In this document: positions 1,041 through 57,929 of the stretch, in pieces | How the letters are laid out: each line of letters begins with the position of its first letter | Position numbering within the stretch: position 1 is the stretch's first letter | Assembly (NCBI GenBank): GCA_951406725.2 | Contig: OX597819.1 | Location: 3,038,001-3,102,000 of the forward strand | Direction of reading: 5' to 3' | Origin: Octopus vulgaris | Taxonomy: Eukaryota | Length of the DNA stretch: 64,000 bases | The notes under the pieces: generated by a model | What the model was told of the DNA's origin: nothing | Seen by the model: only the letters and a program-made list of their open reading frames with translations | Databases searched by the model: none | Made by a program: the position numbers and the translations under genes

Positions 1041-1183
1041 CTGCTCCATAATGTATCGAATAAGAATTTGTTCTAATGGTGAGTACAAAGGAAAATTGTG
1101 TTTTGCCAATCCAGATCTCAATGACTGCCGAATTTTGCCAGCACCATATGACTGAACTGATTGTCCCCCTTCAATTGCAAATC
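1041..1183 (-). CDS. Actin-fold exon ((G)FAIEGGQSVQSYGAGKIRQSLRSGLAKHNFPLYSPLEQILIRYIMEQ); gene continues beyond the window
   Basis: ctcttttcacccacag acceptor, CAG|gtagtt donor, phase 1->0. Aligns to actin GYALPHA...AGRDLTDYL...EREIVRDIKEK. Confidence 0.9.
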
Positions 1184-1513
1184 CTGTGGGTGAAAAGAGA
1201 TGGAAACAAATGTCAGAACAGAAATAAATAATACATCACGTTATAATCATTAAGAGATATCGTATACTAACAGAGATATCGTATACTAACAGGGAAAGAA
1301 AATTTGAGCAGCAAGAAAACAGCAAATCATATTTTGAAGCTTACGTCTTAAAAGAGGCTAAATTTGATTGAAAAGATAAATTTGAATGTAGGGAGGGGGA
1401 AATGCATTATCAGGTATTTTAAAAATTGCTTTGTCTTCTATAGCCCTTTGAATGGATTTGGTAGATGAAAACTGAAAGAAGCCCATTGTATATGTGTGTG
1501 TGTGTGTGTGTGT

Positions 1514-1813
1514 CATCATCATCATCGTTTAACATCCGCTTTCCATGCTAGCATGGGTTGGACGGTTTGACTGGGGTCTGGTAAGCCATGGAGGCTGCAC
1601 CAGGCCCAGTCAGATCTGGCAATGTTTCTACAGCTGGATGCCCTTCCTAACGCCAACCACTCCGTGAGTGTAGTGGGTGCTTTTTACGTGTTAGATAAGG
1701 CTGGCAATGGCCACAATCGGATGGTGCTTTTTACGTGCCACCGGCATGGAGGCCATTCGTGGCGGCACTGGCAACGGCCACGTTCGGATGGTTCTCTTAC
1801 GTGCCACCGGCAC
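1514..1813 (-). mobile_element. Isolated RTE 3' tail (representative; further copies near 2.4-2.6, 10.0-10.2, 28.6-28.9, 29.6-30.0, 32.1-32.3, 46.0-46.2, 46.7-46.9, 56.3-56.6, 57.0-57.2 and 60.1-60.5 kb)
   Basis: Shared motif gagtggttggcgttaggaagggcatccagctgtagaaac...acccatgctagcatggaaa..gacgttaaa(gat)n, the same as the tail of the long copies. Confidence 0.85.
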
Positions 1814-1820
1814 GTACATG

Positions 1821-1856
<36 letters not shown>

Positions 1857-1958
1857 TGGACAAACAAAAGGAAGAGCACTCTACATATTTATTGGGAGTT
1901 ACATTTATTGTTCAAAACGGTCTGAATCAGATTCTGAATCAAACTGTTTTGAACAATA

Positions 1959-2188
1959 TATTGGGTTGTCCGGAAAGTTCTTGCCGATTTATAGTAGCTT
2001 ACCTTTTGACTTATTTTAGAACATGGTTGAGTCCATAAAATAGGATTTGACTACACCTCCATTTAGAGCACACTTTAAGCTATCTTTTCGTGGAAGAAGG
2101 TTTATGTTCCTATAACCTGTGTTAATTCTGTAACCCTTGAAAATGGAAGATAAGAAAGTTCATTTTTGGCACTTGATGCTTTGGGAAC
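1959..2188 (+). mobile_element. mariner 5' end fragment
   Basis: TA-TTGGGTTGTCCGGAAAGTTC terminus followed by MEDKKVHFWHLMLWE, a mariner transposase N-terminus. Confidence 0.7.
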
Positions 2189-2925
2189 CAGACAAAAATT
2201 ACTGCAGCTCGGCTGGGATGTGTTACCCCACCCTCCATATTCACCATCTTTGCTCTCTCTCTCTTTCCTCTCTTGCTCCTGCTGAGCTAGATATGTTTCT
2301 CCTCCTATTTCTGTCCTTCTTCAATACTCTAACCTCTCATCATCTGACACAAACCCACCTCCCTCAATGCCATTCTCAGATTGCTGGGTGGAGAGGGTCT
2401 TGTTTTTCCAGTTATTTGGCAAAAAACGTCCAGTACACTCTGCAAAATAGTTGGCATTTGGAGGGGCACCCAACTGTAGAAACCATGCCAAAACAGACAA
2501 CAGAGCTAGGTGCAGTCTTCTGGCTTGCCAGTTCCTGTCAAACCCTACAATCCATGCCAGCATGGAAAATAAATGTTAAATGAGGATGATGATGGATTAA
2601 TTCAAAATCTTTCTTATTAAATAAACAACTATTAAGATGTGTGACATTGCAATATAAACTTTATCATTATGAAATCTCAGAACAATTCAACATTAAAAAT
2701 GTTACTTCTTTTCAACCCAGTATACAAGCATATGTAAATCCACATATTGTAGGAGTAATGAAAGCTCTTCCCATTAGTGAATTTCATTATTATTATTATT
2801 ATTATTATTTTTGTCAATAAAGCAATCCCAATATTGCTGCTTCATGTCTAAAAATGTACTGAGCTTTTATAGTTGGGTCCCTAATCACAGTTTTTTTTTA
2901 CTTGCATTCATTTAAAATTCTCTCT

Positions 2926-3404
2926 TAACCCTTTTATTATCATATATCTGTTGATATACAATGCCTTTGTTTCAACTAATTTTGAAAATAACTTTGTCAT
3001 TATTTAACTGGAATTAGGAGCATAAATTGATATAAAATTTTGATGGGAGATTTTAATTTAGAACATTTTAAAACAGGAAGGTTGTATAATAGAACCAGGG
3101 GTGGTCTCAGGTAAGTTGGTATCAAAAGGGTTAGGATTCAAACCTCGTAGAATATTGTTTTGTCAGTGTAAAATATCTAACTCTTTCACATTCAGATTTC
3201 TGTATCAAATGTAATACTTATTTATTCACACTGATTGGAATTAGTCATGCATTACCTTGAAGCTTTGAGATTTCAATGATGTGATTATTTATTTTTAGAA
3301 TAATATTGTAGGGTAAGTGTGAGAGGCTGGATCTGGCCAGTTTGAAGATAAAACAAATAGATTATTTTGGTTGGATATAGCCAGTTTAAATGCAAAAGGG
3401 TTAA
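2926..3404. mobile_element. Two adjacent piggyBac-like MITEs (~2926-3133 and ~3177-3404)
   Basis: TTAACCCTTT...AAAGGGTTA(A) termini. Confidence 0.6.
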
Positions 3405-3464
3405 AGACATACAACTTAACATATGAATAATAAAAGGATAGTATAATAAAAAAATGTTACTTTC

Positions 3465-3657
3465 CATCATAAATAGGAATAACCTCCAGTCTTTCACCAA
3501 TATCAACCATTATACCAGATTTGGATTTGTAGGAATAGAGAGCTGTGATAGCTTGTGTTACCATACACACTCCTTGTACATGGAACCGGTTCATCAATAT
3601 TTTCATAATATTTTCCTTATCTTTTTTACTAATATTCAAAGGCATAACCAGCATGAC
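3465..3657 (-). CDS. Actin-fold connect-1/phosphate-2 exon (VMLVMPLN...TQAITALYSYKSKSGIMVDIGERLEVIPIYD)
   Basis: ttattttaaag acceptor. Aligns to actin VLLTEAPLN...[29 protein letters not shown]. The 3' boundary is inferred from homology (GA donor, see findings). Confidence 0.93.
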
Positions 3658-4599
3658 CTTTAAAATAAAGACAAAAACATGTTATAGACTATTGTGAAAA
3701 GAAAAAATGCATACAAAATAAACAAATTGGAATCATATAACTAATGAAATATTCTTTAAAAATATATTGTAATTATAAAAATTGTGGTGGTTGTGTGCTA
3801 AGAAGTTTGCTTCCTAACCACATGGTGTCAGGTTTAGTCCTACTGCATGGCACTTGGGCAAGTGTCTTCTGCTATAACCCCAGGTCAACCAAAGCTTTTT
3901 GAGTAGATTTGGTAGATGGAAACTGAAAGGATCCCATCGTGTGTGTTAGTCTTTGTGTCTACATTTGTGTTTGTCCCCTTGCCACTGTTTGACAGCCAGT
4001 GTTGGTTTGTTTATGTCCTCAAAACTTACCAATTTGGCAAAAACAATCAATAGAATAAATACCAGCTTAAAAAGAAAATAAGTACTGGGGTTGATTAGTT
4101 CAGCTAGAATTCTTCAAGGTGGTGCCCCAGTATGGCCACAGTCTAATGACTGAAACACATGAAAGATAAAAGATCATTTAATTAATAAAAAGAAAAGGTG
4201 GTAACAAGTGACATTCATTTTGTAGTACCTTCTCTTCTAGGGCATAATTCATTGTTGTTAGATGTGTGTAATGCGATATATAAGACAATTCTTTGGATGA
4301 TTTTTCTTTCTTGCACTATATACATGTTGAGATGGTCTGGACACATATTTCCTCCCCTCCTGCAAAGGCTTCTTATTTTCCTCTCTTCTAACTTTGGTTT
4401 CTCTTTCATAAAATATTCCACAGATTCATCAGATATAGATGCCACTCTTATGTTCTTGCCATTGTTGGCTAAATTTAATTCAGGTAAAGAATTTTAAAAA
4501 TTTGGTGTTACTTTCAAACACAGTTTCTAATACACTACAAATTCTCTGAATTTTTTTTTCAGACAAATTGAGACACAATGGGTTTTGGTTTAATCTCTA

Positions 4600-5600
4600 A
4601 CTCAAGAACGACTGTAGCTTCATATAATGGTTAAGGTATTTGTAATATATAAAGAACTTATCATATACAGTGCCCAGGTGTACTACAATTCATCAGAAAT
4701 AGAAACCAAAGCTGCATGAACACTACAGAGAATATGCACAAGAAGTGAACAGCAGATGAGTCTTTAAAAAAGAAAAATACGGGGGTTAGGGGCATCAGGG
4801 GTTAGGGGCATCAGGGGTTAGGGGCATCAGGGGTTAGGGGCATCAGGGGTTAGGGGCATCAGGTGTACTGTTGGTGAATTTCAAGAAGCTTGGCAGTTTT
4901 GAAGGATATTGTGCCCTGACAGATAACAACTGACGTGGGTAGTTTATTCTAAGCTTCAGCAATTCTGAGTGTGAAAAAATGTCTCTGGAAGTCATGGATG
5001 CTGTGTTGTCTGATTTTGTAAGCATGTCAATGAATGTAAGAAATATGGAATTCAAAAAGATGCCCAAAGGTTGTTGTTGAAAAGATGGTTAATAATCTTG
5101 TGGATGTCTGTCAAGTCAGTTACCAGACATTGGAGCTTTAATGTGTCCACACCCAGGGAAACAATATGTCCAGAGTAGGGTTGATACTTGACGGTGGGTA
5201 TAATTCAGGAATACAAACTTCAAGTGACTCATTTTGTCTATATAATCTGACATACTGAAGATTAATTTGCCTGATAACATAGGCATTAGACAATTCCCTT
5301 CTACACACACTGAACACAAGATAGAGAGATAGTTTTAAGTACAGTTCAGCAGCTGATGGCTTTCAGTATTTTGATGTTTTGAAACCCACCTCTGTCTTTC
5401 ACATCAAAACATCAAGGAATGATAGTTGGTTATTGAATTATGCAGTGAGTTCATGAGGTCTGCATGAAATTGGACATCCTCTGGGTATTATCAGAATATG
5501 TGTTATCAACCTGTATTAACCAGGCTGTGAGCGTTTGTGAGTAACTTTATGCTAATCAGTTGGGTGAACTTTCTCTGGATGCCATCTTGGATGGCTGACT
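4600..5600 (-). mobile_element. Degraded Penelope-like retroelement
   Basis: FNNQLSFLDVLM*KTEVGFKTS near 5380-5435 resembles the Penelope RT motif LPFLDVL...F.T. A downstream DYIDK segment resembles a degenerate GIY-YIG motif. Confidence 0.6.
4782..4861 (+). repeat. 16-bp tandem repeat GGGGTTAGGGGCATCA x5
   Basis: Five exact copies read directly. Confidence 0.95.
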
Positions 5601-5769
5601 GAAACAGCAAAACTGTTTCAGTTGTGAGAGAAATATATATATATATATATGTATGTATATATATGTATATATACTAATCAAAGTGTACAAAATTACATAT
5701 CTATTATAGCCAATCAGTTTCATGCTAAGGGTTCAACAAGGTGTTAGATAACAGTCCGATTAGATAACC

Positions 5770-6828
5770 CTGCACTCTTCCTCAACATCAGTAGAAAGAT
5801 GGTGAAAGAGGTCAGAAAGGAGTTGGAAGATTCAGGATTCAACTACGAGGTGACAGTAGGGATGAAAGCTCATTATTGATGATCTAATGCTATCAGAATG
5901 CTGGAATTTGTCACTGAAATCCAGAAGGTCCTCAACAATGATCTCAGCAAGCTGATGCATGCCATCGTCTGGAAGGAAGGTGTGGATGAAATGCTCATCA
6001 GGCAGGTGGTGCATGAGAACATTCACTACTTTTCATACAAGATGAATTTCTTTCCAAGGCAATGCAGGAAAAACAACTGAAGCACACCAAGAAGCTAATC
6101 AAGTTGAAACACTCACTGGAGCGAGACAGGCTGTGGTTCTTCTCTGATGAGAAGAATTTCTGCCAACACCAGAAGATCAACTCCCAGAATAATAGGTAGC
6201 TTTCTGTCTCACCCAAGGACGTGCCCAGAGTCATGCAGATGAAATTTCCAGTGACAATCATAAACTTTGGTGTTGTCAGCAGTGAAGGTGACACCATGCA
6301 GCCCCATTTCTTCTCTGAGAGCCTCAAGCTGAACACCAACGGCTACATCCCTGTTCTGAGTGAGGTTGTGAAGTTCTGGATTGACTGAGTAGCTGCAGGG
6401 AGGCTATACATATGGCAGCAAAGCTCTGTGTCCTGCCACACCAGCTAGAAGACCTAGTCCTGGTTGTTGGATAATTTCTTCAATTATACAGCACCTGACA
6501 TTTGGGCTCCCAACTTGCCTGACTGCAACCCACTCAACTTGTTTGTGTGAGGCACAGTGGAATGAGAGACCAATAAATTTAGTTGCAATATGAAAGGTAA
6601 GCTGAGGACCAGGATTACAAGGGCCTTCAAAGGGTCTAAAGTGGCCAGTTCTAAGGTTGCCTGGGGGCTGTTATCAAGGTCAAAGGTGGGTTCATTGAGG
6701 GAGATTAACAGAACATGTCATGAAGATAAACTGACTCAAATTTGATGAATACATCACAAAAAATAAAAACATTGTTTTAGTTTTTCCTGAGACAGTCATC
6801 AAGCAAATGAATACTGTCAGCACCCTAT
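5770..6828 (+). mobile_element. Tc1/mariner-superfamily (maT/DD37D-like) transposase pseudogene
   Basis: WFFSDEKNF, FGVVSSEG, YIWQQSSVSCHTS and WAPNLPDCNPL motifs with in-frame stops. Right end cagcacccta-ta. Confidence 0.85.
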
Positions 6829-7325: not shown

Positions 7326-7406
7326 TTGATAATCTGGAGGTTTTATTTTCAAATCCTGGAAGATAGCTGAGAAAACGGATGGAAAGATTTCATATTCAAT
7401 TTTGAA
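7326..7406 (-). CDS. Actin-fold exon (FKIEYEIFPSVFSAIFQDLKIKPPDYQ)
   Basis: tttttatatttcag acceptor, gtaaga donor, phase 0->0. Aligns to actin IWHHTFYNELRVAPEEHP. Confidence 0.9.
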
Positions 7407-8419
7407 CTGAAATATAAAAAAGATTTCAACAATTTTAGTCTTTTCCATAAACAATTTGAAGAGAAAAATCTAACATTCAGAACTTTATCAGAAACTTAGC
7501 ACGAAACAAAATTACAAAAAAGCAATGATTTTTACACAGACACTTGGCAGAAGCTTGGCTCCAAACAAAATTAAAAATAAGCAACAACTTTTATACAAAC
7601 ACTGGATATGTATGAAAAATAACTTCACACACACATACACACATTTTACCTATGTTTAAACAGGTAAATTCATTCAATACAGTCTGTTATAAAAACCAGA
7701 TTTTTAAAAAGTAAAATCAGAATGATTCATTTTTCTCAATAAAAGAGAAGAAATTAAAAATAATATTTTCTAATATATTGAAAGTTCAAGTGCTTGTTTT
7801 TATGAGAAAAACTGCTTTGATAACTCAATGGAATTTTAAACAAAATGCATTTTCACTGTCCATATTGATGTCAAGTTTTGGCACAAGGCCAGCAATTGTG
7901 AGGGAGGATGCAAATTGATTATATCAATCCTAGTACTCAACTGGTACATATTTCTATCAACTCTGAAAGGCTGAAAGACAAAGTTGATTCTTCTCATGTA
8001 GATGCCACAGCACGTTTTGCCTATATCAATATTTATAAATATATTGATATGTTGTAAATATATTGTTACTAACACTAGTCTACAACAAGCAGAGCTCCAT
8101 ACTTGAACACCTGGTGTTTATTAATAGTATTTATAAAATAATAGTAATGGACTTCTTGTGGTTTGTTAGGGTGTGGTAAATTATAGCATGTGAACTACAA
8201 GATAAAAGCATCTAGCCATGTATACTGACAAATGTAGATGTATATACAGATATATTGACTTTGGCCATGCTGGAGCACTGCATTTAGTCGAGAAAATCAA
8301 CCCCAGGACTTATTCTTTGTAAGCCTAGTACTTATTCTATCGGTCTCTTTTGCTGAACCACTAAGTTACGGGGACGTAAACACACCAGCATCAGTTATCG
8401 AGTAATTTTGGGGGGACAA

Positions 8420-8458
<39 letters not shown>

Positions 8459-8849
8459 CGATGGGCTTCTTTCTGTCCAACGGATGGTGCTGAGTTGTCA
8501 AACATTTAAACCAAATTTTCTCAAAACAACTTGTCCGACCGTCCCATAGGCCTCCCCTTTGAGAAACACTGATTTAACCTAAATTGAGACACCAGCAAAA
8601 GAAGAAATAAAGATAGACTTTTTTTCTATTCCAAAGAAAAACGATTTTATTCACACAAATATGCAACCGAAGAGTTTAAAGTACCAGTAATGATAAGGCT
8701 GTTGACTGGGAGAACACAAACATGGTTTAAACAGTAAGCTTGGCAGGAAAGAAACGTGCCTTTAAGCAGAACAAAAATAACAAAAAATGGAAGGTGCAGT
8801 TATGTACAAGTTGATGGAATAAAAGCAGGACAAAAATGGCTTTATCAAT

Positions 8850-11341: not shown

Positions 11342-11490
11342 CTTATCTACTTTGTCCGAAAGTCCAAATACATGCATGATCTTTGAAGAAAGACGATTCT
11401 TGGGTTTATAAGCTTCAAATCCAACAAAATGCTTCTTTTCAGAATAGTTTACTGCAACAACACTAGGGAAGAAGATCTGAGGCAAAGTGA
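11342..11490 (-). CDS. Actin-fold subdomain-2 exon ((V)TLPQIFFPSVVAVNYSEKKHFVGFEAY...DKVDK)
   Basis: tctgttacag acceptor, AAG|gtaaga donor, phase 1->0. Aligns to actin PRAVFPSIVG...YVGDEA. Confidence 0.92.
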
Positions 11491-12819: not shown

Positions 12820-13804
12820 TACATGGCACTCTGTCAGTTATGATGACAAGAGTTCCAGTTCATCTGATCAATGAAACAGTTTGCTTGTGAAATTAACATG
12901 CAAGTGGCTGAGCACTCCACAGACATGTGTAGCCTTAATGTAGTTCTTGGAGATTCAGCGTGAAACAAAATGTGAAAAGGTCGGTCCTTTGAAATACAGG
13001 TACAACTCATCTTTGCCAGCTGTGTGGATGGAGCAACGTGAAATAAAGTGTCTTGCTCAAGGGCACAATGCAGGCTGGGAATTGAACTCATGACCTTATG
13101 GTCACAAGCCGAATACCCTTACCACTAAGCCATGTGCAATCTGAGTATCATATTAAAAGTAGATACACCATGAAAGGCCTAATTAACTGTAGTATTTCTC
13201 CTGAGACATATAGTATTAAATCTGCTTTGAATAGGATATACAGATTGCTATTTTAAAGTAATACTGCTTCTGTTGTACATAATGAAAATATCAGTGTATG
13301 AGTGTGTGTGTACATACATATTCACACAGACGTCTATTATTCACTTATGGTTATGTACTGAGGCACTTGAAAATAGTTTAAACAAGACAAAAGTTCATGA
13401 CTATCTTATATCAGTTTTATATCAGAATAGTTGCTGTTTTAGGCAAATTACTTTCTGCAAAACTAAGCTCTATGTTACTGCTAAAACAATACAAATGGTT
13501 ATACAGAGGTATTATTGTGGTGAAAGAAATATAAGATAAAGAGAAAAAAAGAACAAATGGATAGCAAAAACTATATTTGAGTTAGAGTTGTACTTGTGTA
13601 TCTAGCTGATCATTGATAAGACCTAAAGAATTAAAGCTTTTCAAGATTATTTTCTTTGTAATATCCTCCAGAGTAGGTGACCTTGTCTAGGACAAAAGAA
13701 ACCATGTTAAATAAAAATGTATGTGAAGTAAGGACAAAGGGTTATGGAAGAGGATGGCTAAAGAAGGGAAATTAGTGGTAATATGTTTGGAAAAGAGTAC
13801 TTAC

Positions 13805-13865
13805 CATTTTCTTTCAAAATGCCAGCTCTAACTGACATACTTCCCATTTCAACAATCAGAATATT
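13805..13865 (-). CDS. Actin-fold phosphate-1 exon (NILIVEMGSMSVRAGILKEN)
   Basis: ttgttacag acceptor, G|gtaagt donor, phase 0->1. Aligns to actin LVVDNGSGMCKAG. Confidence 0.92.
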
Positions 13866-17750: not shown

Positions 17751-18230
17751 AGACCTGGTAGAAACAGCAGCGAAATCTCCCTCAAATCACACCTTACTGT
17801 TTTATGTATGTATATATATATGAGCCAATGAGGGGGACCTCTACATGGTAGCTAGACCTGGTAGAAATAGCAGCCAAATTTCCCCCAAATCACACCTTAC
17901 TGTCTTATCTATGTATATATGTATGTATGAGCCTATGAGGGAGACCCCTACATGGCAGCTAGACCTGGTAGAAATAGCAGCCAAATTTCCCCCAAATCAC
18001 ACCTTACTGTCTTATCTATGTATATATGTATGTATGAGCCTATGAGGGAGACCCCTACATGGCAGCTAGACCTGTTAGAAATAGCAGCCAAATTTCCCCC
18101 AAATCACACCTTACTGTCTTATCTATGTATATATGTATGTATGAGCCTATGAGGGAGACCCCTACATGGCAGCTAGACATGGTAGAAATAGCAGCCAAAT
18201 CTCCCTCAAATCACACCTTACTGTCTTATC
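17751..18230 (+). repeat. 107-bp tandem repeat, ~4.5 copies
   Basis: Unit containing agacctggtagaaatagcagccaaatttcccccaaatcacacc. Near-identical ORFs start at 17845, 17952 and 18059. Confidence 0.95.
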
Positions 18231-18308
18231 TTTCTGCTACTTATATTCGTCGTAAAAAACTTTCCTGTCACACACTCACGCACACACACACACACGCGCG
18301 CACCCTCA

Positions 18309-21328: not shown

Positions 21329-21469
21329 CTTATAAGAAGATTTTGGAGCATCTACTAAAGGCTGGATATAGTTAGCTTTCAAGTTGTCCACTGTTTGACT
21401 CTGAAGTGCAGCTAACCACTGATCATATTCTTTTGATGAAGGACATCGCACCATCAGGTAATGACCCCT
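21329..21469 (-). CDS. PH domain C-terminal helix and linker exon (RGHYLMVRCPSSKEYDQWLAALQSQ...SSYK)
   Basis: tag acceptor, AAG|gtaaga donor, 141 nt in phase 0->0. Contains the invariant PH helix Trp (EYDQWLAAL). Confidence 0.92.
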
Positions 21470-21649: not shown

Positions 21650-22335
21650 TGTAAATAGTACAATTTGAGCATGGTCAATGCCAGTGCCACCTGAATGGCC
21701 CCTGTGCCAGTGGAAATTAAAAAGCACCCACTATACTCTTGGAGTGGCTGGCATTACAAAGGGCATCTAGCTGTAGAAACTTTGCCAGATCAGATTGGAG
21801 CCTGGTGCAGCCTCCTGGCTTACCAGTCTTCAGCTTAGAGTAAAAGGTAGACTGTATGATGCATGTGTATGAACAGCCGTGCTACATGGCAGTGAAACAT
21901 GGGCCGTGACTTCTGAGGACAAGTATAAGCTCGCAAGGAATGAAGCCAGCATGCTCCGCTGGATGTGTAATGTCAGTGTTCATACTCGACAGAGTGTAAG
22001 TACTTTGAGAGAAAAGTTGGACCTAAGAAGCATCAGTTGTGGTGTGCAAGAGAGACGTTTATGCTGGTATGGTCATGTGGTGAGAATGGATGTGGATAGC
22101 TGTGTGAAAAAGTGCCACATCCTAGTGGTTACAGGAACCTGTGGAAGAGGTAGACCCAGAAAGACTTGGGATGAGATGGTGAAGCATGACCTTTGAATAT
22201 TAGGCCTCACCGAGGCAATGATTGGTGACTGAGACCTTTGGAAATATGTTGTGCTTGAGAAGACCTGGCAAGCCAAGTGAGACCATAACCCATGGCCTCT
22301 ACCAGGGGTGTAACCAGCCCACTTATGCACACATA
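21650..22335 (+). mobile_element. Rearranged RTE fragments (3' tail segment followed by ORF C-terminus)
   Basis: Tail sequence at 21650-21835, then HGSETWAVT...RRLCWYGHV...GRGRPRKTW. Confidence 0.85.
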
Positions 22336-33179: not shown

Positions 33180-33272
33180 ACCATCATCAATACCAATTAC
33201 ATTGTTGCCCATAACAGTTATGGTTCCTCCCATCAACAATATCTCATCACTGGGTTGCTGATCTCCACAATT
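33180..33272 (-). CDS. PH domain middle exon (NCGDQQPSDEILLMGGTITVMGNNVIGIDDG)
   Basis: atttttag acceptor, gtaagt donor, 93 nt in phase 0->0. Matches the P..I.L.G..V PH pattern. Confidence 0.9.
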
Positions 33273-34877: not shown

Positions 34878-35021
34878 ATCATAGTAAACAAGCCATCCAT
34901 TTTTTGCCATAAAATATCTTCTTTTCCAAGTTTTCAGTAGGGTTGACTTTTTTTTATTCATAGGTAGTTTTTCCATCACTCCTTCCATTTCAATAAAATC
35001 AGAAGAAAAATCTTGTGTATC
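34878..35021 (-). CDS. PH domain beta1-beta3 exon (DTQDFSSDFIEMEGVMEKLPMNKKKSTLLKTWKRRYFMAKNGWLVYYD)
   Basis: tatcttcttcag acceptor, gtacat donor, 144 nt in phase 0->0. Shows the classic PH pattern EG.M.K...WKRRYF...G.L.YY. Confidence 0.92.
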
Positions 35022-39048: not shown

Positions 39049-39093
39049 ATCAGGAACCAAATGGATATTGTATAAATCCATAAAAAGTGGGGA
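39049..39093 (-). CDS. 45-nt coding exon (SPLFMDLYNIHLVPD)
   Basis: tttattttcag acceptor, gtaagt donor, phase 0->0, open. Confidence 0.7.
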
Positions 39094-42602: not shown

Positions 42603-44664
42603 TTTAACCAGGTGATACATGAAGGAGTCATACCCAGTGACTGGTGTAGCAGCATAATAGTCAACTACTACAAAAGTAAAGGTGATGCTTTAGATACAAA
42701 AAATTACTGAGGTATCAAGTTGTTGGATCAGGTAATGAAGGTCATGGAGAGGGTCATAGCCCAACTAATTAGGGAGAGAGACAGTTTAGATGAGATACAG
42801 TTTGGGTTCGTGCCAGGGAAAAGCATCACTGATGCCATATTTCTGGTAAGACAGCTGCAGGAGAAATACCTAGCCAAAGATAAGCCCCCGATCCCTTATT
42901 TGGTGGTCAATGAGGAAACTAGGGATAGATGAATGGTTAGTGAGAGCTGTGCAAGCCATGTACAGGGACTCTGTCAATAAGGTGAGGGTTGGCAACAAGT
43001 ACAGTGAAGAATTCCGGGTAGAGGTAGGGATCCACTAAGATTCAGTCCTAAGCCCCCTCCTATTTATCATAGTCCTCCAGGCAATAATGGAGGACTTCAA
43101 GACAGGATGCCCCTGGGAGCTCCTCTATGCTGACGACCTTGCTCTAATTGCCGAGTCACTTTCAGAACTAAAGGAGAAGTTTCAGGTGTGGAAGCAAGGA
43201 TTAGAATCGAAGGGCCTTAGGGTCAACCTAGCTAAAACTAAAGTTCTAATAAGTAGGATGGCAGGCAAACCACAAATCCCTTCAGGTAAATGGCCCTGCT
43301 CGATCTGTAGAAAAGGCATAGGTAGAAACTCTATAAGATGTACCCAGTGTAAGCTATGGACACATAAGAGGTGCAGTAATATCAAAGGAAAGCTAACTGG
43401 GAAGATAGTTTTTGTATGTGGCAGATGCTCAGGAGCAATAAACACTGAAAATGTGCAGAGACCATCTTCCGCCACATTCCAAGGAGAAAAACTAGAAGTA
43501 GTTGATAGCTTCCATTACCTAGGTGACCAAGTCAGTAGTGGGGGGTGGGTGCTCTGAAAGTGTAGCTGCTAGAATAAGAATAGCCTGGGCAAAGTTCAGA
43601 GAGCTCCTACCTCTGCTAGTGACAAAGGGCCTCCTGCTCAGAGTAAAAGGTAGACTGTATGATGCATGTGTATGAACAGCCGTGCTACATGGCAGTGAAA
43701 CATGGGCCGTGACTGCTGAGGACATGCGTAAGCTCGCAAGGAATGAAGCCAGTATGCTCCGATGGATGTGTAATGTCAGTGTGCATACTTAACAGAGTGT
43801 AAGTGCCTTGAGAGAAAAGTTGGACCTAAAAAGCATCAGATGTGGTGTGCAAGAGAGACGACTGCGCTGGTATGGTCATGTGGGGAGAATGGATGTGGAT
43901 AGCTGTGTGAAAAAGTGCCACACCCCAGTGGTTGCAGGAACCTGTGGAAGAGGTAGACCCAGGAAGACCTTGGATGAGGTGGTGAAGCATGACCTTCGAA
44001 CTGAAGCAATGACTAGCGACCAAGACCTTTGGAAATATGCTGTGCTTGAGAAGACTCGGCAAGCTCAAGTGGGACCATAACCTTATGGCCTATGCCAGGG
44101 GTGTAACCAGCTCACTTATGCGTACCTTTCCTTCATTGGACACTAAACTCTGCTTGCGAAGACCTGTTGAGGCAAGTGAAATTGAAATCAAATTTGATGA
44201 CTGGCATCCGTGCTAGTGGAGGACTAAGAGTGCCATACGAGCATGATCGTTGCCAGAGCAACTGGCCTTCGTGCCGGTGGCATGTAAAAAGCACCATTCA
44301 AGTGTGATCATTACCTGCATCGCCTTACTGGCACCTGTGCTGGTAGCACGTGAAAAACAACATTCGAGCGATGTCATTGCCAGTGCCGCTGGACTGGCTC
44401 CTGTGCAGGTGGCTCATAAAAAGCACCATTTGAGTGTAGCCGTTGCCAGTACCGCCTGATTGGCCCTCGTGCCTGTGGCACGTAAAAGCACCCACTACAC
44501 TCTCAGAGTGGTTGGCGTTAGGAAGGGCATCCAGCTGTAGAAACTCTGTCAGATCAAATTGGAGTCTGGTGCAGCCATCTGGTTTGCCAGACCTCAGTCA
44601 AATCGTCCAACCCATGCTAGCATGGAAAGCGGACGTTAAACAATGATGATGAAGATGATGATGA
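42603..44664 (+). mobile_element. 5'-truncated, disrupted RTE LINE of the same family
   Basis: Same RT motifs with stops and frameshifts, followed by 3' UTR repeats and (GAT)n tail. Confidence 0.93.
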
Positions 44665-47541: not shown

Positions 47542-47660
47542 TGGATCCCATTGATTAAAAGACTGTCTGTCATCAATAAACATATCTTCATCCTGTTTAG
47601 GTAGTGGCTTGTTAAAGGGGCTGACCAAGGAATCAATTTCTTTCTTTGATTTACTGCCAA
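47542..47660 (-). CDS. Coding exon, N-terminal linker ((V)GSKSKKEIDSLVSPFNKPLPKQDEDMFIDDRQSFNQWDP)
   Basis: Strong ttttcttctgttctag acceptor, gtaaga donor, open in phase 1->0. Confidence 0.75.
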
Positions 47661-48499: not shown

Positions 48500-49130
48500 G
48501 CAGTCTGATATTCTAGAAAGGAAGTTTTAGACAGGTTTTAGTGTGCAACTAATGAGAGTAGGAGAAACAAATCAAATTTGGAAGTGCCTGAATGGAGACA
48601 ACATGAGATCAGCAACTATGAGGTACAAATGCCCCACTGTAGTAGCTGTTTGTTTATTCCTTTTTATGATTTTTATATGTGGCTGGCAGTTCTGTTGCTG
48701 GTATGAAAAGTAGAAAGCGGAAACATCTGTGGGCCACAAGTTGGAGAGTATAGGCAAGCAACTTCATACCAATCAGCCAAAAAGTTATTTTTCAGAAGAG
48801 AACGGTGCCTAAGTGTGTAGCAGCAGCACATCCCAGTTGTATGAGCAGCATTCCATAGTAGGTCTTACTGGTATTTTGCAAAGGGATACTAGTTGTTCAA
48901 AGTATATTCTGACTACCAAGAAGGTCACTTTGAGATGCAGTATTTGCTAAGTTGAAGATCCCTTGATGGTGAAGTCTAGCATTTGTAACCATCTTGAGAA
49001 TTCTTGTTACATGCTTAAGAGTTGGGGTGCAATTATGTTTTCTTGAAATGTGTAGTGGAAGGAAACAAGATTAGACTGGCTTCATTTGAGGATAAATTAT
49101 TCCCAATCTCTGTTCATGGAGTCATTGTAG
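48500..49130 (-). mobile_element. Old CR1/Jockey-type LINE RT C-terminal remnant
   Basis: LVSLCKIPVRPTMECCSYNW resembles the L..LYK..IRP.MEYCS.VW motif. Confidence 0.5.
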
Positions 49131-49195
49131 GTTTGGCTTAAAACGTTTAGATTGCACCATGAACCTCATTCTTAACATAATTCTCTTTCCCCTCA

Positions 49196-50797
49196 TGTGC
49201 AGGGACTCTGTCAGTAAGGTGAGGGTTGGCAACGAGTACACTAAAGAATTCAGGGTAGAGGTAAGCGTCCACCAAGGTTCAGGCCTCAGCCCCCTCCTAT
49301 TTATCATAGCCCTCCAGGCAATAACGGAGGACTTCAAGACAGGATGCCCCTCGGAGTTCCTATATGCTGATGACCTTGCTCTAATTGCTGAATCACTATC
49401 AGAACTAGAGGCAAAGTTTCAAGTGTGGAGACAAGGATTAGAATCGAAGGGCCTTAAAATCATCCAAGCTAAAACTAATGTCCTAATATGTAGGAAGGTA
49501 GACAAATCACAAACACCCTCAGATTGATGGCCCTGCTCAATCTGTAGAAAAGGCGTAGGTAGAAACTCTATAAGATGCACCAAGCGTAAGCTATGGACAC
49601 ATAAGAGGTGCAGCAATGTCAAAGGAAGGCTAACTGGGAAGATAGTTTTTGTATGTGGCAGATGCTCAGGAGCAATAAACACTGAAAATGCTCAGAGACC
49701 AACTTCTGCCACATTCCAGGGAGAAAAACTAGAAATTGTTGATAGCTTCTGTTACCTAGGTGACCAAGTCAGTAGCAGGGGGCAGGTGTGCTGAAAGTGT
49801 AACTGCTAGAGTAAGAATAGCCTGGGCAAAGTTCAGAGAGCTCTTACTTCTGCTGGTGGCAAAAGGCCTCTCGCTCAGAATAAAAGGCAGACTGTATGAC
49901 GCATGTGTACGAACAGCCATGCTACATGGCAGTGAAACTTGGGCCGTGACTGCTGAGGATATGTGTAAGCTCACAAGAAATGAAGCCAGTATGCTCCGAT
50001 GGATGTGTAATGTCAGTGTTCATACTCAATAGAGTGTAAGTACCTTGAGAGAAAAGTTGAACCTAAGAAGCATCAGTTGTGGTGTGCAAGAGAGACGCTT
50101 GTGCTGGTATGGTCATGTGGCAAGAATGGATGAAGATAGTTGTGTGAAAAAGTGCCACACCCTAGTGGTTGAGGGAACCTGTGGAAGAGGTAGACCCAGG
50201 AAAACCTGAGACGAGGTGGTGAAGCACGACCTTCGAACTTTAGGTCTCACCAAGGAAATGACCAGAGACCAAGACCTTTGGAAGTATGCTGTGCGTGGGA
50301 AGACCTGGCAGGACAAGTGAGCCCATAACCCGTGGCCTCTACCTGGGACGTAGCCAGCCCACTTATGCATACCTTTCCTTTTTGTGACACAAAACTCTAC
50401 TTGTGAAGACCTGTTGAGGCAAGTGAAAATCAAAATCGAAATTGTTCAACATCAATGGAAATTGTAGCTGTGATACCAGTGCCGGTGGCACATAAGAGGA
50501 CCATCTGAAAGTGGCCGTTGCCAGCGCCACCCAGACTGGCGTCTGTGCTGGTGGCACGTAAAAAGCACCATCTGATTGTGGCTGTTGCCAGCCTCGTCTG
50601 GCACCCGTGCCGGTGGCACGTAAAAAGCACCCACTACACTCATGGAGTGGTTGGCGTTAGGAAGGGCATCCAGCTGTAGAAACACTGCCAGATCAGACTG
50701 GGCCTGGCGCAGCCTTCTGGCTTCCCAGACCCCAGTTGAACCGTCCAACCCATGCTAGCATTGAAAACGGACGTTAAATGATGATGATGATGATGAT
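49196..50797 (+). mobile_element. 5'-truncated, disrupted RTE LINE of the same family
   Basis: HQGSGLSPLLF, YADD and Cys-rich finger. Single-copy 3' UTR and (GAT)n tail. Confidence 0.93.
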
Positions 50798-53429
50798 AGG
50801 TAGTGGTATATATCTTTATGTGTGTACGTTTGTTTGTTCCCCTCTACCACTCACTTACATCCCCATAACTTAGCAGTTTGGTAAAAGAGATGATAAAATA
50901 AGTATTGAGGTTGATTTGTTTGAGTAAACCCTTCAAGACAAAATCCCAGCAAAGCTTTAATTCCATGACTGAAACAAAAGGTGTACACACAGACGCACAC
51001 ATATGGACTCTACAGGAAGGTATTCTGTTTAGGAGAGCAGTAAATAAAAATGCAAAATGCTGTTGGGTTCAATGGACAACCTTTCTAGAGCTAGAGACAT
51101 GATAAAAGGTACCCAGTCCATGCTGTAAAGTGGATAATGATAGGTATATCTGTAAAAACGAAGTTCAAAACATAAAAAGCACAGAGACAATGTGATGTCA
51201 ATAGCTGTAGCGAAGGCAGCCCATCTAAGAGATGAGTAACCCCAGCATCACAGGCATGACATTGGCTAAAATACAAGTAGAGGAGATGTTTTAATCTTGG
51301 CAAACCCCCTCTTTTAAGTTAGTAACATTATAGATGACATTCGGATGTACATGCTGTAGAGGGGTCGATGACAGAAAGGATTGTAAAAAAAAAAAAAAGA
51401 AAAAGTGACCTCAATCCCTAAAAACAAAAATCATGGCATACATAGAGAATAGGAATTTTATTTTTAATGATGGCACCAGATGATGAAGGGCTGCAACAGA
51501 CTCGTCCAATCCACACTAACATAGAAAAAAAACATGCAAAAAAATAATGAAGATGATGATGATTAGTTGGAGTATAAATTTAACGTTGGGTTCTTTAATG
51601 ATCCAGTTGTAATTAATCCCTTGTTGCATGAATAGTTCAAGATGAATATCCAAGATGTTTCCATATATGCAAACATTCATCTCATATGAACCCACTTCAG
51701 TTTCATTGGGTCACCACTGAAGGAGTTATATCCAGTTAGTCTATCAAAGACAAGTGAACCTAATTTAGCTTATTCCTCCTCATTTCTCAAATGGAATTTT
51801 ACAGATTGTCACCACCATCATTTTATGTTGGATGAATTGTCATAGTTTGAGCCCTTTTTTACCCACCTAGGTATGGTCTCCAACCATGCCTCACTCATCT
51901 ATTTTCATTTTGGTACAGCTTCTATGGCTGGATGCACAGAGGGTACTAAGTGCATTTTGTCATGGTACTAGAAAGGTTGTTATAGCCTTCCTCATTCTAC
52001 AATGTCTTCACACATTTGTCAACCACTTTACAGAGTGTACTGGGTGCATTTTGTCATGGTAGCAGAACTATAGAAGTTGTCATGTACTTCATAAAACCAG
52101 ACTAAGGATCTTAACCCCCATGATGCCAACACTGGTTAGTCATCCACTTTACAAAGTATACTGGATAAACCTTATCATAGCACCTAACTTCTATATTTCA
52201 TTTCTATTCATTCAAGAAAATATATTAGAATAGAGAGGAGAAAGCGCAATTTCAGGTGAACTAAGGTGAGAGAAAGGAAAAAAGCAAAATATAAGGAGTA
52301 AGAGATATGGTCCAACCAGAAGTTGAGTCAGCATCACTGACTTAACTTAGGAGTTGACTCTCAAGTTATATGACTCACACATCTTTAATGTACAAATATC
52401 AAAACAAGTATATAATCCAGTGTAAACCAACAGTATTATGCACCCGTGGAGCAAACACTGGTGAGTTTTACTGTACCTTGGACTATATTGTCAGAGGAGA
52501 AATGATGACTTTGTGGCATGTTTTTTCCTTAAATCATCTCCTGATAATCAAAGTTATCAACATCATGCTGACATTAATCCAACACAACAGTATAATTATT
52601 CACTCAATTTTGTATTTTCTCAAGCCTTCTTTTTCTACTGTCAAATCATGATAAACAGATAGTCACTTGCCCACTTCTGTCTTCATTAACATCACATGTA
52701 TTTACTTAAATACAAATATATAAATATATGCACATAATGTAATAGATATTTAACTAAATTTACTAAAATTTCCAAATAATGAATTATATTTCTAAATGTC
52801 TGTAAAAAGTTTATAATTAAACCAACCAGTTCACCTGTAGATTTTCATGTGGTGCCTAAAGTAATTAAGCAGTTCATTACCAAGTTTACCAGGAACAATC
52901 TTTTACAAAATGAGAGTTGAAAATTAACTGTTCATTATCAGAGCTAAATTTGGTTTCTACAATAACTAAATGAGTGGTTAGTAATTGCTAATTAAGAAGG
53001 CTGATTCATTAAATGAATGAATATAAGTAAAGCCATACAAGGGATTAGTCATATCAGCAATTAATTTGAAGTGGATGTTGCTAAGTATCTTCATGTGTCG
53101 ACATTTGATCACTGCACTAGACTTTTCATGTGGAGATCATGATTAATGAAAATAGTACCTGAGAACCATAGACAGTAGACTGTTCTTGGGTTTAATAGTA
53201 AGAATATTTGTGTGATGAGACAGTTCATGGATTATTATGCACGTAAATTTGCTTGTTTGTTCAAGTACCAAGTGCTTTAGTCTTATTATTACCAATTTTA
53301 TAGTCAGGCTGTGTCAGGCTAATCTCACATAAAAACCACTTTAAACTATTTGTTTCAGCTTTAGCTCTGGAAGTATTTTTGCTTACAAAGGCCACAAGAT
53401 AAAGAATCATCGTAATTTCACACAATTAT

Positions 53430-54500
53430 GAGAAAGTGTTTGACAAGACACCTCACATTGTGATTTGGTGGTTGCTAAGGAAACTAAGAATAAACTGATA
53501 GTTTGTGATGGCTAAACAAGCTATGTATGAAGGAGCAGCCAGTAATGTGAGAATATTGCAGGTTGGAGTAGATCAGAGCTCAGGTCTCAGCCCATTCGTA
53601 TTTATTATAATCCTTTAAGCCATGGCTGGAATTTAAGTGAGGCTGCCTTTGGAAACACCTGTATACATATGAATTAGCTCTTAGAAGAATTGAATCTGAA
53701 ATTTCAGGCATGGAAGCAAAATCTGGAACTGAAGGACCTTAGCAAAAACAAAAAAAATTTGTAAGTTGGAATTCAGGACCCTTGTAACATCAGCGAAATG
53801 GCCATGCTCCAACTGTAGAAAAGGAGTTAGTAAAAATTCTCTAAAATTTGATCAGTGTAATCAGTGGATACACAGAAGTGTATTTGGATTAAAGACAGGT
53901 TAATAGAAAAGACAGACTTCAGATGCAGCAGGTGAATAGATTCTCTTAAATGCCCATATGCTTCCCAAGAAGTGGTTGATAGCTTTTGCAACTAGGTGAC
54001 CAAATTAGCAGTGTGGAGTAGATGTTTCAAACGTGTGTTAGCTAGAATAAGAATCGGCTGGAGAAAATCCAGATTGCTATTAATTTTGCTGGCAACAAAG
54101 GGCTTATGCTTCAAGATCAAGAGCAGATTGCAATACTTGTGTGTGAAGTACATTGCTGCATGACAGTGAGAGGTGAACGTTGAGAGTAGAAGACATGCAA
54201 AGGCTGGAAAGGAATGAGGTGAGCATGCTTCACTGCATGTACAATGCTAGATTGTATGACCTGCAAAGTATAAATGAATAAAAAGACAAACTGAGAATAA
54301 GAGGAATCCGTTGTAAGAGAGGAGACTGGGTGTGGGATGCAAATGGAGAATGACAGCTATATGACTAAGAGTGAATGGTTTCTGTGGAAAAGGAAGATTT
54401 GGCATGATGGGGTGAAAGATAATTTCAAGGCGTCCTATCTAAAGAAGGAGATAATTGAAGACCATGTCCACTGGTGACACACAGTGCTGCAGAAGATCTG
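53430..54500 (+). mobile_element. Old, degraded RTE LINE
   Basis: Recognisable remnants of EKVFD, QSSGLSP and the Cys finger, collinear with the younger copies. Confidence 0.7.
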
Positions 54501-56599
54501 ACCTCCTGCACAGACTTAGTGCAGGATTCCCCACCAACCTGTTGTCTATTCTATACCCTCACATTCAACACTCATATATTTTCCTAACTATTGTGTCTAT
54601 TCTCTACCCACTCATACTCAAGTGTCATGACACTCATATCAATTTCTGCATATTGAATATCTTCCTATCCCATACTTCCACCACCGATATCATACTCCCA
54701 TTTACTTTCTCCTGAATCATGATATTTGAGTGGGGAGGGATTGTACTTCAGTAAGCATGACTCATGTTAACTTGTGGTTATACCCTGGCCCTTCATTATC
54801 ATTTTATCTATCCCTCCTCCACAATCTACCCACCCCTTTATAACATGGTGTAGCACTGTATCACCATCTACTCAACTATCTCAATTTCTTTCCTCATTAC
54901 CCTTATCACTTTCATTAATCTCCTGATATTACCGGTTCCTTTCCACACAAGCTCTCATGTTTCCCACAAGTACTACTTTACCCTCTCATGTATAATGTGG
55001 GGTAGCACTACATCCACCCCCTTATTCAACCCTTCCCACTATCTTATCACTCTAACACCCTCTCACTAACCCCTTGATGTTACTTTTCACTTACTTCCTA
55101 TTATTTCCTTACCTAAAAGTGTCCCAGTTCTCTCTCAATAATTAATCTTTGTAATTTCACTAACAACTGTCTTGGACACTAAGGTATCATCAGACCCATG
55201 TTGGCATGGTAGAGGGACTCGGCCAGCGCACCACTGGCTCCACCTATTCAATGCCACTCATTACCCCTTACCTTTCTCTCCTTCACATTAATACCTGACA
55301 CTACACCTCTCCCTCTTTCCTTCGTCTCCTCTACTCCCTCTCCAACCCTGTTTCCCCTTCATTACCATCTTCTCATAGTAAATCTGTCCCTTCCATCATG
55401 GGGTGCTCTCTTTTGCTTTGCAAGCTGCAAGGTAACCTCAACAGTGCTGGTGCCACAAAAAGTACCTAGTGCACAGTGATTAGAAATTAATTCAAACAGG
55501 GAAATGCAGGAAAGGCAACCTCTATAGAGCTGGTGCCATTAAAAAATGCACACAGTTCACTCTGTAAAGTGGTGAGAGTTATGAAAGGGATACAGCTGTA
55601 GGAACCATGTCTAAAAATGAGACATTGGAGGAAGACATGGTTGTTTGACCTGATGAAGTCTGTTGAATCATCTTACCATTGCCAATATGGAAAGTGAATG
55701 TAAAATGGCGATGATGATGTTTTTGTACACTCTCTTATCACTAAGGCAAAGGTGCATGGCTCAGTGGTTAGAGCGTTGGGCTCACAATCATGAGGTAGTG
55801 AGTTCGATTCCCAGAATGGGCTGTGATATGTTCTTGAGCAAGACACTTTATTTCATGTTGCTCCATTTCACTCAGCTGTAGAAATGAGTTGCGAAATCAC
55901 TGGTGCCAAGCTGTATCGGCCCCTTTACCTTTCCCTTGAATAAAATTGGGAGTGTGGAGAAGGGAGGCTGGTATGCATGGATGACTACTGGTCTTCCATA
56001 AACAACCTTGCTGGGACTTGTACCTTGGAGGGGAACTTTCTAGGTGCAATCCCATAATTATTCATGACCGAAGGGAGTCTTAACCATTATCACAAAAAGC
56101 CTCACTTAAATGTTTTCACTTTTACCTTTTATTTGTTTCAGTCATTTAAGTGTGGCCATGCTGGGGCACTGCCTTGAAAGGCTTTAGTTGAACAAATCGA
56201 CCTTTGGACTTAATTTTTTAAACCCTAGTACTTAATCTATTGATATTTTTTGCTGAACTGCTAAGTTACGTGGATGTAAACATACCAACACTGGTTGTCA
56301 AGTGCTGGTAGGGAACAAACAGACACAAAGACACACATACTGGCCCCCATGCCAGTGGCACGTGAAAAGCACTATCCCAACGTGATTGATGCCAGGCCTG
56401 CCTGACTGGCTCATGTGCCGGTGGCAGGTAAAAAGCACCCACTATACTCTTGGAATGGTTGGCGTTAGGAAGGGCATCCAGCTGTAGAAACATTGCCAAA
56501 TCAGATTGGAGCCTGGTGCAGCCACTGGCTCTCCAGACCTCAGTCAAACTTATCCAACCCACGCCAGAATGGAAACCGGACGTTAAACGATGATGATGC

Positions 56600-56630
<31 letters not shown>

Positions 56631-57895
56631 GACACACGTACATGACGAGCTTCTTTCAGTTTCTGTCAACCAAATCCACTCACAAGGCTTTGGTTGGCTT
56701 GAGGCTATAGTAGAAGACACTTGCCTAAGGTACCATGCAGTGGGACTGAACTCGGAACTGTGTGCTCATGGATATATGTGTGTTTGTAGAAGTGATCTTG
56801 CCAATGGTGATGTTTGTTTCTAGTTCTTCATGCTGTTTGATAAACTGGGAGCTTCTTAATTCATTCGAAAGCAAGTGGAGGTTGGCAACAGGAAGGGCAT
56901 CCAGTCACAGAAAAACCCTGCTGCAATGTACTCTCATCTGACCCAAGCAAACTTGGAAAAGTAGATGTTAAGATAATGATGATGATGATGATGCTTAATA
57001 TATTTTCTACAGACATTATTTTCTTTGCATTAGGAAGGGCATCCGGCCATAGAAACTATGCCGAATCAGACTGGAACCTGGTGCAGCTCCCAGCTTACCA
57101 GTTTTCAGTTAAACCGTCCAACCCATGCCAGCATGGAAAATGGACATTAAATGATGATGATGATGAGATAAGTGCGAAACTTGTATACAAGCTTGGCTAG
57201 AACTTCTTAATCTCAAATAAAAGAAACTTATGAATATGAGATGGTAGGGATTGAAACTAAACCAATAAATACAACCCCCAAAAAACTATAAGGCTACAAG
57301 AAAGCCTCTATACGGTTAACTGAGCTGCTAGAAATAGCAGCAAAACATTTTACAACTTGCTTCAACCATCTTAAAAATGAAAGAACATATTAGTCAATGA
57401 AGTCTAAACTGATCTGCTCTATGGCTAAACAAACACTTACCCCCATCCCTCAAAAAAAAAAAGAAAAAAAAAGAAAAACCAACAAAAAACAGGGAAAAAA
57501 ACCATTGCTTTTAAGTTCTACAATTCTAAGTCCTGAAAACAAAATCTCATGACCAAAAAGAAACATTCATGAGAAAATACTAGTTATTTATATTCTTACT
57601 CAAGAAAATACCTAAACAATATTTTGCATACAAAATTAGACAATAAATGACTCTTTGAAAAATGGTCACATTCAGTTTGATTTCTATGGATCAATAGACA
57701 TGGTTACAATAGACATCAATAGACATGGTTACAGAGAGTATATGAAGTTGTATATTATTGTGCTCAGACAATGTTGTCAAACTCATTACTAAACTAGTGA
57801 CTAACAAATTTATTGGGCCCAGCCCATGCTTGGAACTGTACTGTAACAAATTACAAAAAAAAAAAATCAGTGAAGTAATTGTTAAATAATGTTAC

Positions 57896-57929
57896 TTGTA
57901 AAAGAGTGACGCCTAGTTCCAGATGCCAT
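57896..57929 (-). CDS. Putative first coding exon of PH-actin-fold gene (MASGTRRHSFT)
   Basis: aaaATGG Kozak context and donor A|gtaaca in phase 1, matching the phase-1 start of the next exon. An in-frame upstream ATG lies at 58004 with a stop just before it. The surrounding DNA is non-repetitive and GC-richer. No homology support. Confidence 0.5.

Follow-up and report, generated by a model that had tools for sequence, protein, structure and literature searches.

A single-copy Octopus vulgaris gene joins a PH domain to a divergent actin fold and belongs to a deeply conserved actin-related family

We analysed a stretch of 64,000 nucleotides (nt) of the Octopus vulgaris genome, positions 3038001-3102000 of contig OX597819.1 (contig C6 below) within a 2.8-Gb assembly, and refer to this whole stretch as the window. 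Read on the minus strand, it covers the middle part of a gene of ~140 kb whose product joins an N-terminal region, a conserved helix, a pleckstrin homology (PH) domain and a divergent actin fold. Judged from sequence comparison, the gene and its PH-actin fusion are real. What is new is an additional, deeply conserved family of the actin fold; both domains, the fold and the automatically annotated architecture were known before. The gene encodes a member of an old, undescribed family of actin-related proteins (Arps). Tentatively, and with somewhat less than even confidence, we read sequence and structure model as pointing to a protein that does not polymerise and would anchor cortical actin to the membrane or cap its pointed ends.

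Independent support for the PH-actin fusion

A search with the exon of 64 amino acids (aa) at window positions 3466-3657 against 1.84 billion representative proteins returned at least 143 matches. The top match, Octopus sinensis XP_036360167.1 (uncharacterized protein LOC115213538 isoform X7, 2,473 aa; here P0001), is identical to the query over this exon. The splice model of the gene agrees with P0001 at 556 of 558 residues without a gap, across every junction from exon 47660 on, including the PH-actin junction and the one with a GA donor. Pfam assigns residues 1982-2074 of P0001 to PH (PF00169, 30.4 bits, cut-off 25.1) and residues 2097-2469 to Actin (PF00022, 156.8 bits). The order proposed in the initial annotation, an N-terminal part followed by a PH domain, a linker of ~25 aa and an actin fold, was thus borne out, with a linker of 22 aa. 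The join from exon 21329 to exon 13865, which it had singled out, has phase 0/0 and GT-AG ends and is the same junction as in P0001. A PH exon of 46 aa, used as query in a word-index search among proteins of 82-2000 aa, gave no match; the orthologue, with its 2,473 aa, lies beyond that range.

Two adjacent genes merged on paper, or a dead gene with a broken donor, could also give such a model, and the single GA donor would fit that explanation. Against it stand the identity to an independently annotated protein (556/558), zero stops over 2,622 codons, and the recurrence of the PH-actin join in dozens of species. The join also occurs in unbroken frames on contigs of 1.9-4.2 kb, which suggests transcripts. 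An artefact is already largely refuted and, to our mind, barely credible.

Exon structure

Exons were picked from repeat-masked sequence, as a strict splice-site scan had missed true exons. The model comprises 15 phase-compatible exons, all on the minus strand, which encode 569 aa from the ATG at 57929 to the stop codon. Eleven of them (401 codons) lie inside the window, and four more, located outside it at 2.0 to 8.8 kb from the window start, complete the actin fold with its final third and add the stop. Apart from the intron after exon 3465, the introns are GT-AG throughout. The initial annotation had joined 13 exons into a 416-aa frame running from 57929 to 1041; the multi-exon frame on the minus strand stood, but the numbers and the end at 1041 did not, and its 13-exon model was rejected since P0001 cannot accommodate further exons between 47660 and 1041. 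According to two exon searches of the genome, in which exon 21329..21469 was among the queries and was found once, the gene exists as one copy. In a genome-wide scan with PF00022, three of its exons gave a match, and one of these matches exceeded the cut-off.

Exon 47542..47660, part of the splice model and matched in P0001, holds the end of the low-complexity N-terminal region and the beginning of a W-D-P helix motif. The remainder of this helix, whose motif reads W-D-P-x-x-L-L-x-x-L-Y, is encoded by a 45-nt exon (39049..39093) in which 15/15 residues equal those of P0001. The PH domain had been placed in one exon (21329) and is in fact spread over three. Exon 34878..35021 encodes strands 1-3 and a basic loop and is recognised by PF00169 on its own (E 1.1e-4); exon 33180..33272 encodes strands 4-6, as taken from the splice model and the strands in the family structure model; and exon 21329..21469 contributes strand 7, the C-terminal helix and the linker (47/47 residues as in P0001). 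The actin fold starts in exon 13805..13865 with its first strands and the phosphate-1 loop, in which Glu stands for Asp11 and Arg for Lys18. It continues with subdomain 2 and a shortened D-loop in exon 11342..11490 (splice model, alignment) and a helix of subdomain 1 in exon 7326..7406 (splice model, P0001 match). Exon 3465..3657 carries the hinge helix with the Gln137 equivalent and a phosphate-2 hairpin that is one residue short and has no His161 (PF00022, 34.6 bits for the exon alone), and exon 1041..1183 covers subdomain 3/4 up to the Glu214 equivalent (splice model). Past the window start, the exons lie at contig C6 3036042-3035927, 3035191-3035045, 3033239-3033140 and 3029339-3029196, the last one with the stop.

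Intron 1184..3464 (minus strand) carries GA in place of the GT donor. The initial annotation had assumed this donor, and only this junction yields the residues of P0001 and of a second octopod protein, P0002. The donor context is otherwise strong, with a score of 5.85 that equals the score of the donor at 13804. A GT located 4 nt downstream was rejected, as it needs an acceptor at 1116 and loses 22 conserved residues. GA-AG introns are on record in animals (PMC7072748). A true GA-AG intron, a T-to-A allele and a single-base assembly error are equally possible.

The introns hold other elements as well. A 107-bp tandem repeat (4.5 copies, 94% alike) occupies 17751-18231 between the PH and actin exons. 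A 450-codon reverse-transcriptase-like frame lies within an intron at 28085-26736 (minus strand), and related fragments occur in introns on the plus strand at 43039-44077, 49096-50029 and 21873-22193; we take the frame and its fragments to belong to a LINE-type element. About 92.5 kb before the window start, a minus-strand exon (L011) resembles an Arf-like small GTPase, presumably of the Arl1 type.

Isoforms and start sites

The first 1,900 residues of P0001 map to exons past the window end, namely a first exon of 6,136 nt (67 kb from the window end, contig C6 3168945-3162810) and microexons of 30 nt (3154650-3154621) and 27 nt (3151004-3150978), which are followed by exon 47660. Joined to the latter, these exons give a long isoform of 2,622 aa with no internal stop. 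Ser, Glu, Lys, Thr and Asn are abundant in its N-terminal region, and profile searches with two pieces of it matched only an Argonauta protein.

Because the N-terminus of P0001 maps to these exons, the first coding exon of the initial annotation (57896..57929, minus strand, 11 codons, phase-1 GT donor) is at best a plausible candidate for an alternative start. Its phase fits and a CpG-rich stretch lies on top of it, but it is absent from P0001 and its donor is weak; the same 65-kb intron contains 15 ATG-to-donor candidates with a donor score at least as high. The CpG-rich stretch (57901..58300, minus strand) extends over and upstream of this candidate short-isoform start and has the most CpG of 198 low-repeat 400-bp segments (14 versus a median of 2; observed/expected 0.65, GC 47%). 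It may represent an alternative promoter or 5' untranslated region. Further out, a 235-codon frame at contig C6 3213713-3213009 (minus strand) is similar to the N-terminus of the long isoform (39% over a 54-aa stretch, E 5.5e-7), and a Ser/Glu/Lys-rich frame of 404 codons lies at 3239526-3238315, also on the minus strand. Both are possibly further alternative first exons of the gene.

The gene belongs to a widespread family

We scanned 36 longer proteins, hand-chosen from the 143 matches listed, with Pfam. PF00022 was present in 36/36 and PF00169 in 31/36 at E<=0.001, in 25 of them above the cut-off. Among 282 proteins, 188 near-complete family actin domains were found, 174 of which are preceded by the helix and PH module, a count that is partly circular because the module profile was built from family members. 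The remaining 14 comprise 11 N-terminally cut sequences, one with a degenerate PH domain and two with the helix and no PH domain. With an N-terminal part of 538 aa in the median and up to about 2,500 aa, family proteins are usually far longer than the 416 aa first assigned; many nematode members have about 550 aa. Similar uncharacterised invertebrate proteins do exist in databases, as had been surmised. The automatic labels that some members carry ('actin', 'POTE ankyrin', 'Actin-related protein 8', 'SETMAR') were rejected. One member, P0092 of Salpingoeca urceolata, has a SAM domain ahead of the helix and PH domain. Four matches outside the family (P0087, P0109, P0113 and P0118) contain two actin folds per chain, which could reflect genuine tandem fusions or the merging of gene models.

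Judged by source names, the family includes the choanoflagellates Salpingoeca urceolata and Didymoeca costata, the sponge Sycon, and the cnidarians Hydra, Porites and Clytia. Ambulacrarian sources are sea urchins, a crinoid and the hemichordate Ptychodera. Further names belong to many molluscs, the brachiopod Lingula, the annelid Owenia, the nemertean Lineus, a bryozoan, a priapulid, spiders, a crab, a millipede, odonates, a mayfly, thrips and many nematodes. The three nearest clusters in the Atlas are a mostly nematode actin cluster of 557 aa and two PH+Actin clusters in which arthropods predominate. Among the named matches listed, none bears the name of a vertebrate, tunicate, fly or fungus; the searches were bounded at 143 representatives and, in two cases, at 8,000 scored candidates, many matches are unnamed, and absence of the family from yeast, flies and vertebrates is not proven.

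A tree was calculated from 35 selected family rows, the actins of the octopus genome and its partial Arp1 and Arp2, with Arp3-11 left out. The family lies on one side of a branch that separates it from actins, Arp1 and Arp2 (SH-aLRT 100), and a 101-row FastTree gave the same clade with a support of 99. Within the family, choanoflagellates branch first, followed by non-bilaterians, ambulacrarians and protostomes. This is the expected order and suggests vertical descent from before the origin of animals. The octopod branch of P0001 and P0002 is long in comparison with other molluscs (0.49), and the phosphate-1 loop of these two proteins has Glu for Asp11 and Met for Gly15.

Arp1 and Arp2 are encoded in the octopus genome by separate genes on contigs C2 and C11, and Arp3, Arp4/ACTL6A, Arp5, Arp6, Arp8 and Arp10/11 by separate genes on C3, C5, C2, C2, C1 and C18, respectively (eight loci, each assigned by the best match of one exon). 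The PH-actin gene is therefore additional to the usual set. Actin and Arp1-11 are listed as the conserved set in two reviews (PMC12050087, PMC2441452), the excerpts of which make no mention of the family. Membership in Arp1-11 was rejected in view of the separate genes and of structural identities of 20-23% to Arp3, ACTL6A, Arp5, Arp6, Arp8 and Arp11 versus 29% to actin. An actin-related class outside Arp1-10/11, as initially proposed, agrees with these loci and with the clade set apart from actins, Arp1 and Arp2. We found no study of the PH+actin family in the literature; subscription journals and bioRxiv supplements, which lay outside the scope, may name it. As a separate observation, contig C27 carries at 12.58-12.88 Mb a cluster of roughly a dozen divergent genes that resemble actin, some of which contain stops (loci L020-L028, L030-L032, L035, L037, L038 and L042). 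The aligned ones are about 48-57% identical to an actin of the same genome, and the cluster looks like a lineage-specific expansion.

PH domain and conserved helix

Since P0001 is too long, AlphaFold2 was run on a 47-row alignment headed by P0023, a family member of 529 aa whose sequence is 46% identical to the octopus actin domain. The resulting model has a predicted local distance difference test (pLDDT) score of 93.1 and a predicted template modelling (pTM) score of 0.88 over 529 aa, with an ordered linker. The high pTM suggests a fixed domain arrangement, and the helix, PH domain and actin fold are predicted to pack as one rigid unit. The PH domain of the model shows seven strands and one C-terminal helix (114-126), and its conserved Trp is present in 95-100% of the sequences.

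The loop between PH strands 1 and 2 contains a basic K...(K/R)xR signature, a motif of phosphoinositide-binding PH domains, in the octopus protein and in 65/86 non-nematode sequences. Net charge in the strand 1-2 region has a median of +8 in non-nematode and 0 in nematode sequences and amounts to +9 in the octopus protein (residues 1988-2010). A PH domain with such a loop may bind anionic lipids or phosphoinositides; nematodes have lost the basic loop, so that lipid sensing would not be universal in the family. The motif is not set out in PMC4735990.

In the helix preceding the PH domain, residues W, P, L and Y are conserved at 87-100%. The helix reaches a pLDDT of 96 both in the P0023 model and in that of a PH-less member, where its flanks are poorly ordered. 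Because it is ordered even where the PH domain is missing, it likely docks on the actin fold. As to its docked position, a fold search with the PH-less model returned only alignments within the actin range.

Anatomy of the actin fold

The best structural match of the P0023 model is actin (Z 43.7, root-mean-square deviation 2.1, 347 residues aligned, 29% identity), in agreement with Foldseek. The values for the Arps are Z 38.2 and 22% for Arp3, 34.1 and 21% for ACTL6A, 33.4 and 22% for Arp5, 32.4 and 23% for Arp11, 31.2 and 21% for Arp8, and 30.7 and 20% for Arp6. Sequence identity to actin ranges from 22 to 34% across the family and is 24-25% for the octopus protein.

Residues were counted in 106 sequences, obtained from 171 by dereplication at 85%. 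Gly13 is present in 100%, Arg in place of Lys18 in 97%, Gln137 in 98%, Asp154 in 94%, Glu214 in 96% and Gly301 in 100%, and the nucleotide pocket including Asp/Glu11, Gly156, Arg210 and Gly302 is kept at 92-100%. The pocket is thus largely kept, and binding of an Mg-nucleotide is predicted. The phosphate-2 hairpin lacks one residue in 105/105 sequences that span it and has an Arg in 84. At position 161, His occurs in 0/105, with Asp in 53, Glu in 30 and Asn in 15. Gln137 and His161 of actin position waters for hydrolysis (PMC9618068), and with His161 lost the cycle of ATP hydrolysis is likely altered. The D-loop segment 33-54 comprises 13-16 residues in 98/106 sequences versus 22 in actin. With the D-loop positions included, the barbed face scores 0.57 in similarity to actin, compared with 0.28 for the pointed face (permutation test, p 0.003).

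The likely Caenorhabditis elegans counterpart

C. elegans F42C5.9 (WBGene00018349) is the likely counterpart in the worm. It is annotated with PF00022 and a pleckstrin-like domain ('Actin-like PH domain' in screen tables), and proteins of Caenorhabditis nigoni, bovis and angaria sit in the family clade. Fusions of F42C5.9 with green fluorescent protein (GFP) were seen at the muscle cell membrane and in filament-like and dense-body-like structures (PMC3096668), and RNA interference against the gene left the myofilaments generally disorganised (PMC2694363 supplement; the main text of that paper does not name the gene). The gene was listed as a 'foundling' in a screen for antifungal immunity (PMC4850687), and its expression rises after Cry5B feeding (PMC9704757).

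Discussion

In the reading we favour, the basic PH loop would bring the protein to anionic lipids or phosphoinositides, and the actin fold would hold an Mg-nucleotide in a structural role, its hydrolysis cycle being altered. With the D-loop lost, it could not extend a filament towards the pointed end and would serve only as a last subunit, as has been argued for Arp11. Its better-kept barbed face would take the pointed end of a filament and hold it at the membrane or seed growth, and the variable N-terminal region would set place and partners, isoform by isoform. Besides the anatomy of the fold, the muscle-membrane localisation of F42C5.9 and the muscle defect after its knockdown speak for this reading. 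The initial annotation had suggested a nucleator, a capper or a decoy. Sequence does not separate these roles, but a cap or anchor at the pointed end fits the missing D-loop better than a filament subunit does. We are more doubtful of a further cytoplasmic Arp family, predating animals and retained in most invertebrate lineages, whose single chain would be recruited by lipids to anchor the pointed ends of cortical actin or to seed nucleation, possibly gated by the docked helix. A complex prediction of P0001 residues 1945-2473 with an actin of the same genome, ATP and Mg, computed with no alignments, scored 0.36, 0.33 and 0.33 against a mark of 0.34, with controls at 0.00, and permits no call either way.

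Several observations weigh against an anchor or cap at the pointed end. When the D-loop positions are dropped, the difference between barbed and pointed face (0.57 versus 0.44) is not significant (p 0.16). Arg62 (99%) and Glu205 (82%) are retained on the pointed face, the rim of the barbed cleft is altered (Asn, Asp or Lys for Gly146; Tyr at the Ser145 position in 98-100%), and the column of Cys374/Phe375 is missing. The helix, if it fills the barbed cleft of the modelled fold, would block such a role. In two members, P0095 and P0115, the helix stands right before the actin fold and the PH domain is missing; these are splice forms, paralogues or assembly artefacts. The basic PH motif occurs in 0/20 nematode sequences, while the sole localisation data come from a nematode. 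That F42C5.9 is a member is inferred from domain labels and three Caenorhabditis relatives, and its GFP fusions were overexpressed (PMC3096668). Its muscle score after RNA interference fell in the weakest of three classes (PMC2694363 supplement).

The protein might instead be a membrane-held mimic of actin, a decoy or adaptor whose barbed face binds WH2 proteins, profilin, the gelsolin family or capping protein and tunes or recruits them locally. Residues around the cleft that these proteins bind are kept (Tyr143 84%, Gly168 95%, Tyr/Phe169 83%, Phe352 91%), and F42C5.9 and the gelsolin K06A4.3 share a small 'unusual' localisation class and both go up after Cry5B. An identity to actin of 22-34% is low for mimicry, however, Gly146 is replaced, and Asp288 (96%) and Arg290 (99%), which are filament-contact residues, are kept. 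In our judgement this role is unlikely, if a serious contender.

We consider it rather unlikely, too, that the fold is a nucleotide-stabilised structural scaffold in the manner of nuclear Arps, binding its own helix and family-specific partners and not actin. Near-invariant residues that set the family apart from actin (Tyr at position 145, Trp at 267, and His at both 330 and 337), the loss of the catalytic His161, and a helix that stays ordered where the PH domain is missing (pLDDT 96, with disorder on either side) would suit such a platform. Yet its nearest relative in fold and sequence is conventional actin and not the nuclear Arps (29% versus 20-23%), and the likely worm counterpart sits on filament-like and dense-body-like structures. 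Improbable in our eyes is a non-canonical polymer or sheet of its own on membranes, similar to MreB or FtsA and held by contacts other than the D-loop. Gln137, Asp154 and the acidic or amide residue at 161 could support hydrolysis, Arg62, Glu205 and Arg290 are kept, and the GFP pattern in worms is filament-like; but the D-loop is lost, lateral contact positions are merely 0.39 similar to actin, and the gene is single copy with N-terminal regions of up to about 2,500 aa.

The family follows the animal tree from choanoflagellates on and couples an actin fold directly to a domain of the membrane-targeting type. If its members do anchor or seed filaments at membranes, they would link lipid signals to cortical actin with no need for a multi-subunit complex, and such a link would have existed when animals arose. 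F42C5.9, a likely member, already has localisation data and four unexplained screen hits (muscle, neuroblast migration, epidermal immunity and the response to a pore-forming protein). Relatives in C. elegans and choanoflagellates make the family directly testable. It may have been overlooked as it is possibly missing from yeast, flies and vertebrates and appeared only as a screen hit in C. elegans.

Comparison with known systems

The orthologue in O. sinensis, LOC115213538, agrees at 99.6% across 558 aa and carries automatic annotation only. UniRef entries named 'PH domain-containing protein' have the same PH+Actin architecture and are uncharacterised. F42C5.9 bears the same domain labels, and nematode members differ in having no basic PH loop. 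In filactin of Dictyostelium, too, a long extension at the N-terminus precedes the actin domain (PMC2441452, where the word 'pleckstrin' does not occur). According to the same description, which sets it apart, its actin domain is near-conventional, versus 24-25% identity here.

Conventional actin is the best match of the family in sequence (E 1e-47) and fold (Z 43.7) and shares the core of the nucleotide pocket. It is a single domain of ~375 aa, however, whereas the octopus protein is multidomain and 24-25% identical to it, and the family has a short D-loop, neither His73 nor His161, and a phosphate-2 hairpin one residue short. Arp11/ACTR10 of dynactin would be a work-alike at most, with 23% identity (5adx_J), and the octopus genome has a separate Arp10/11 gene on contig C18. 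Arp11 is not known to have a PH domain. It has been argued to be a pointed-end cap from the loss of its subdomain-2 loop and the better conservation of its barbed face (PMC2174220). In the family this loop is likewise deleted, and the barbed face is closer to actin than the pointed face as long as the loop positions are counted (p 0.003, versus p 0.16 when they are dropped).

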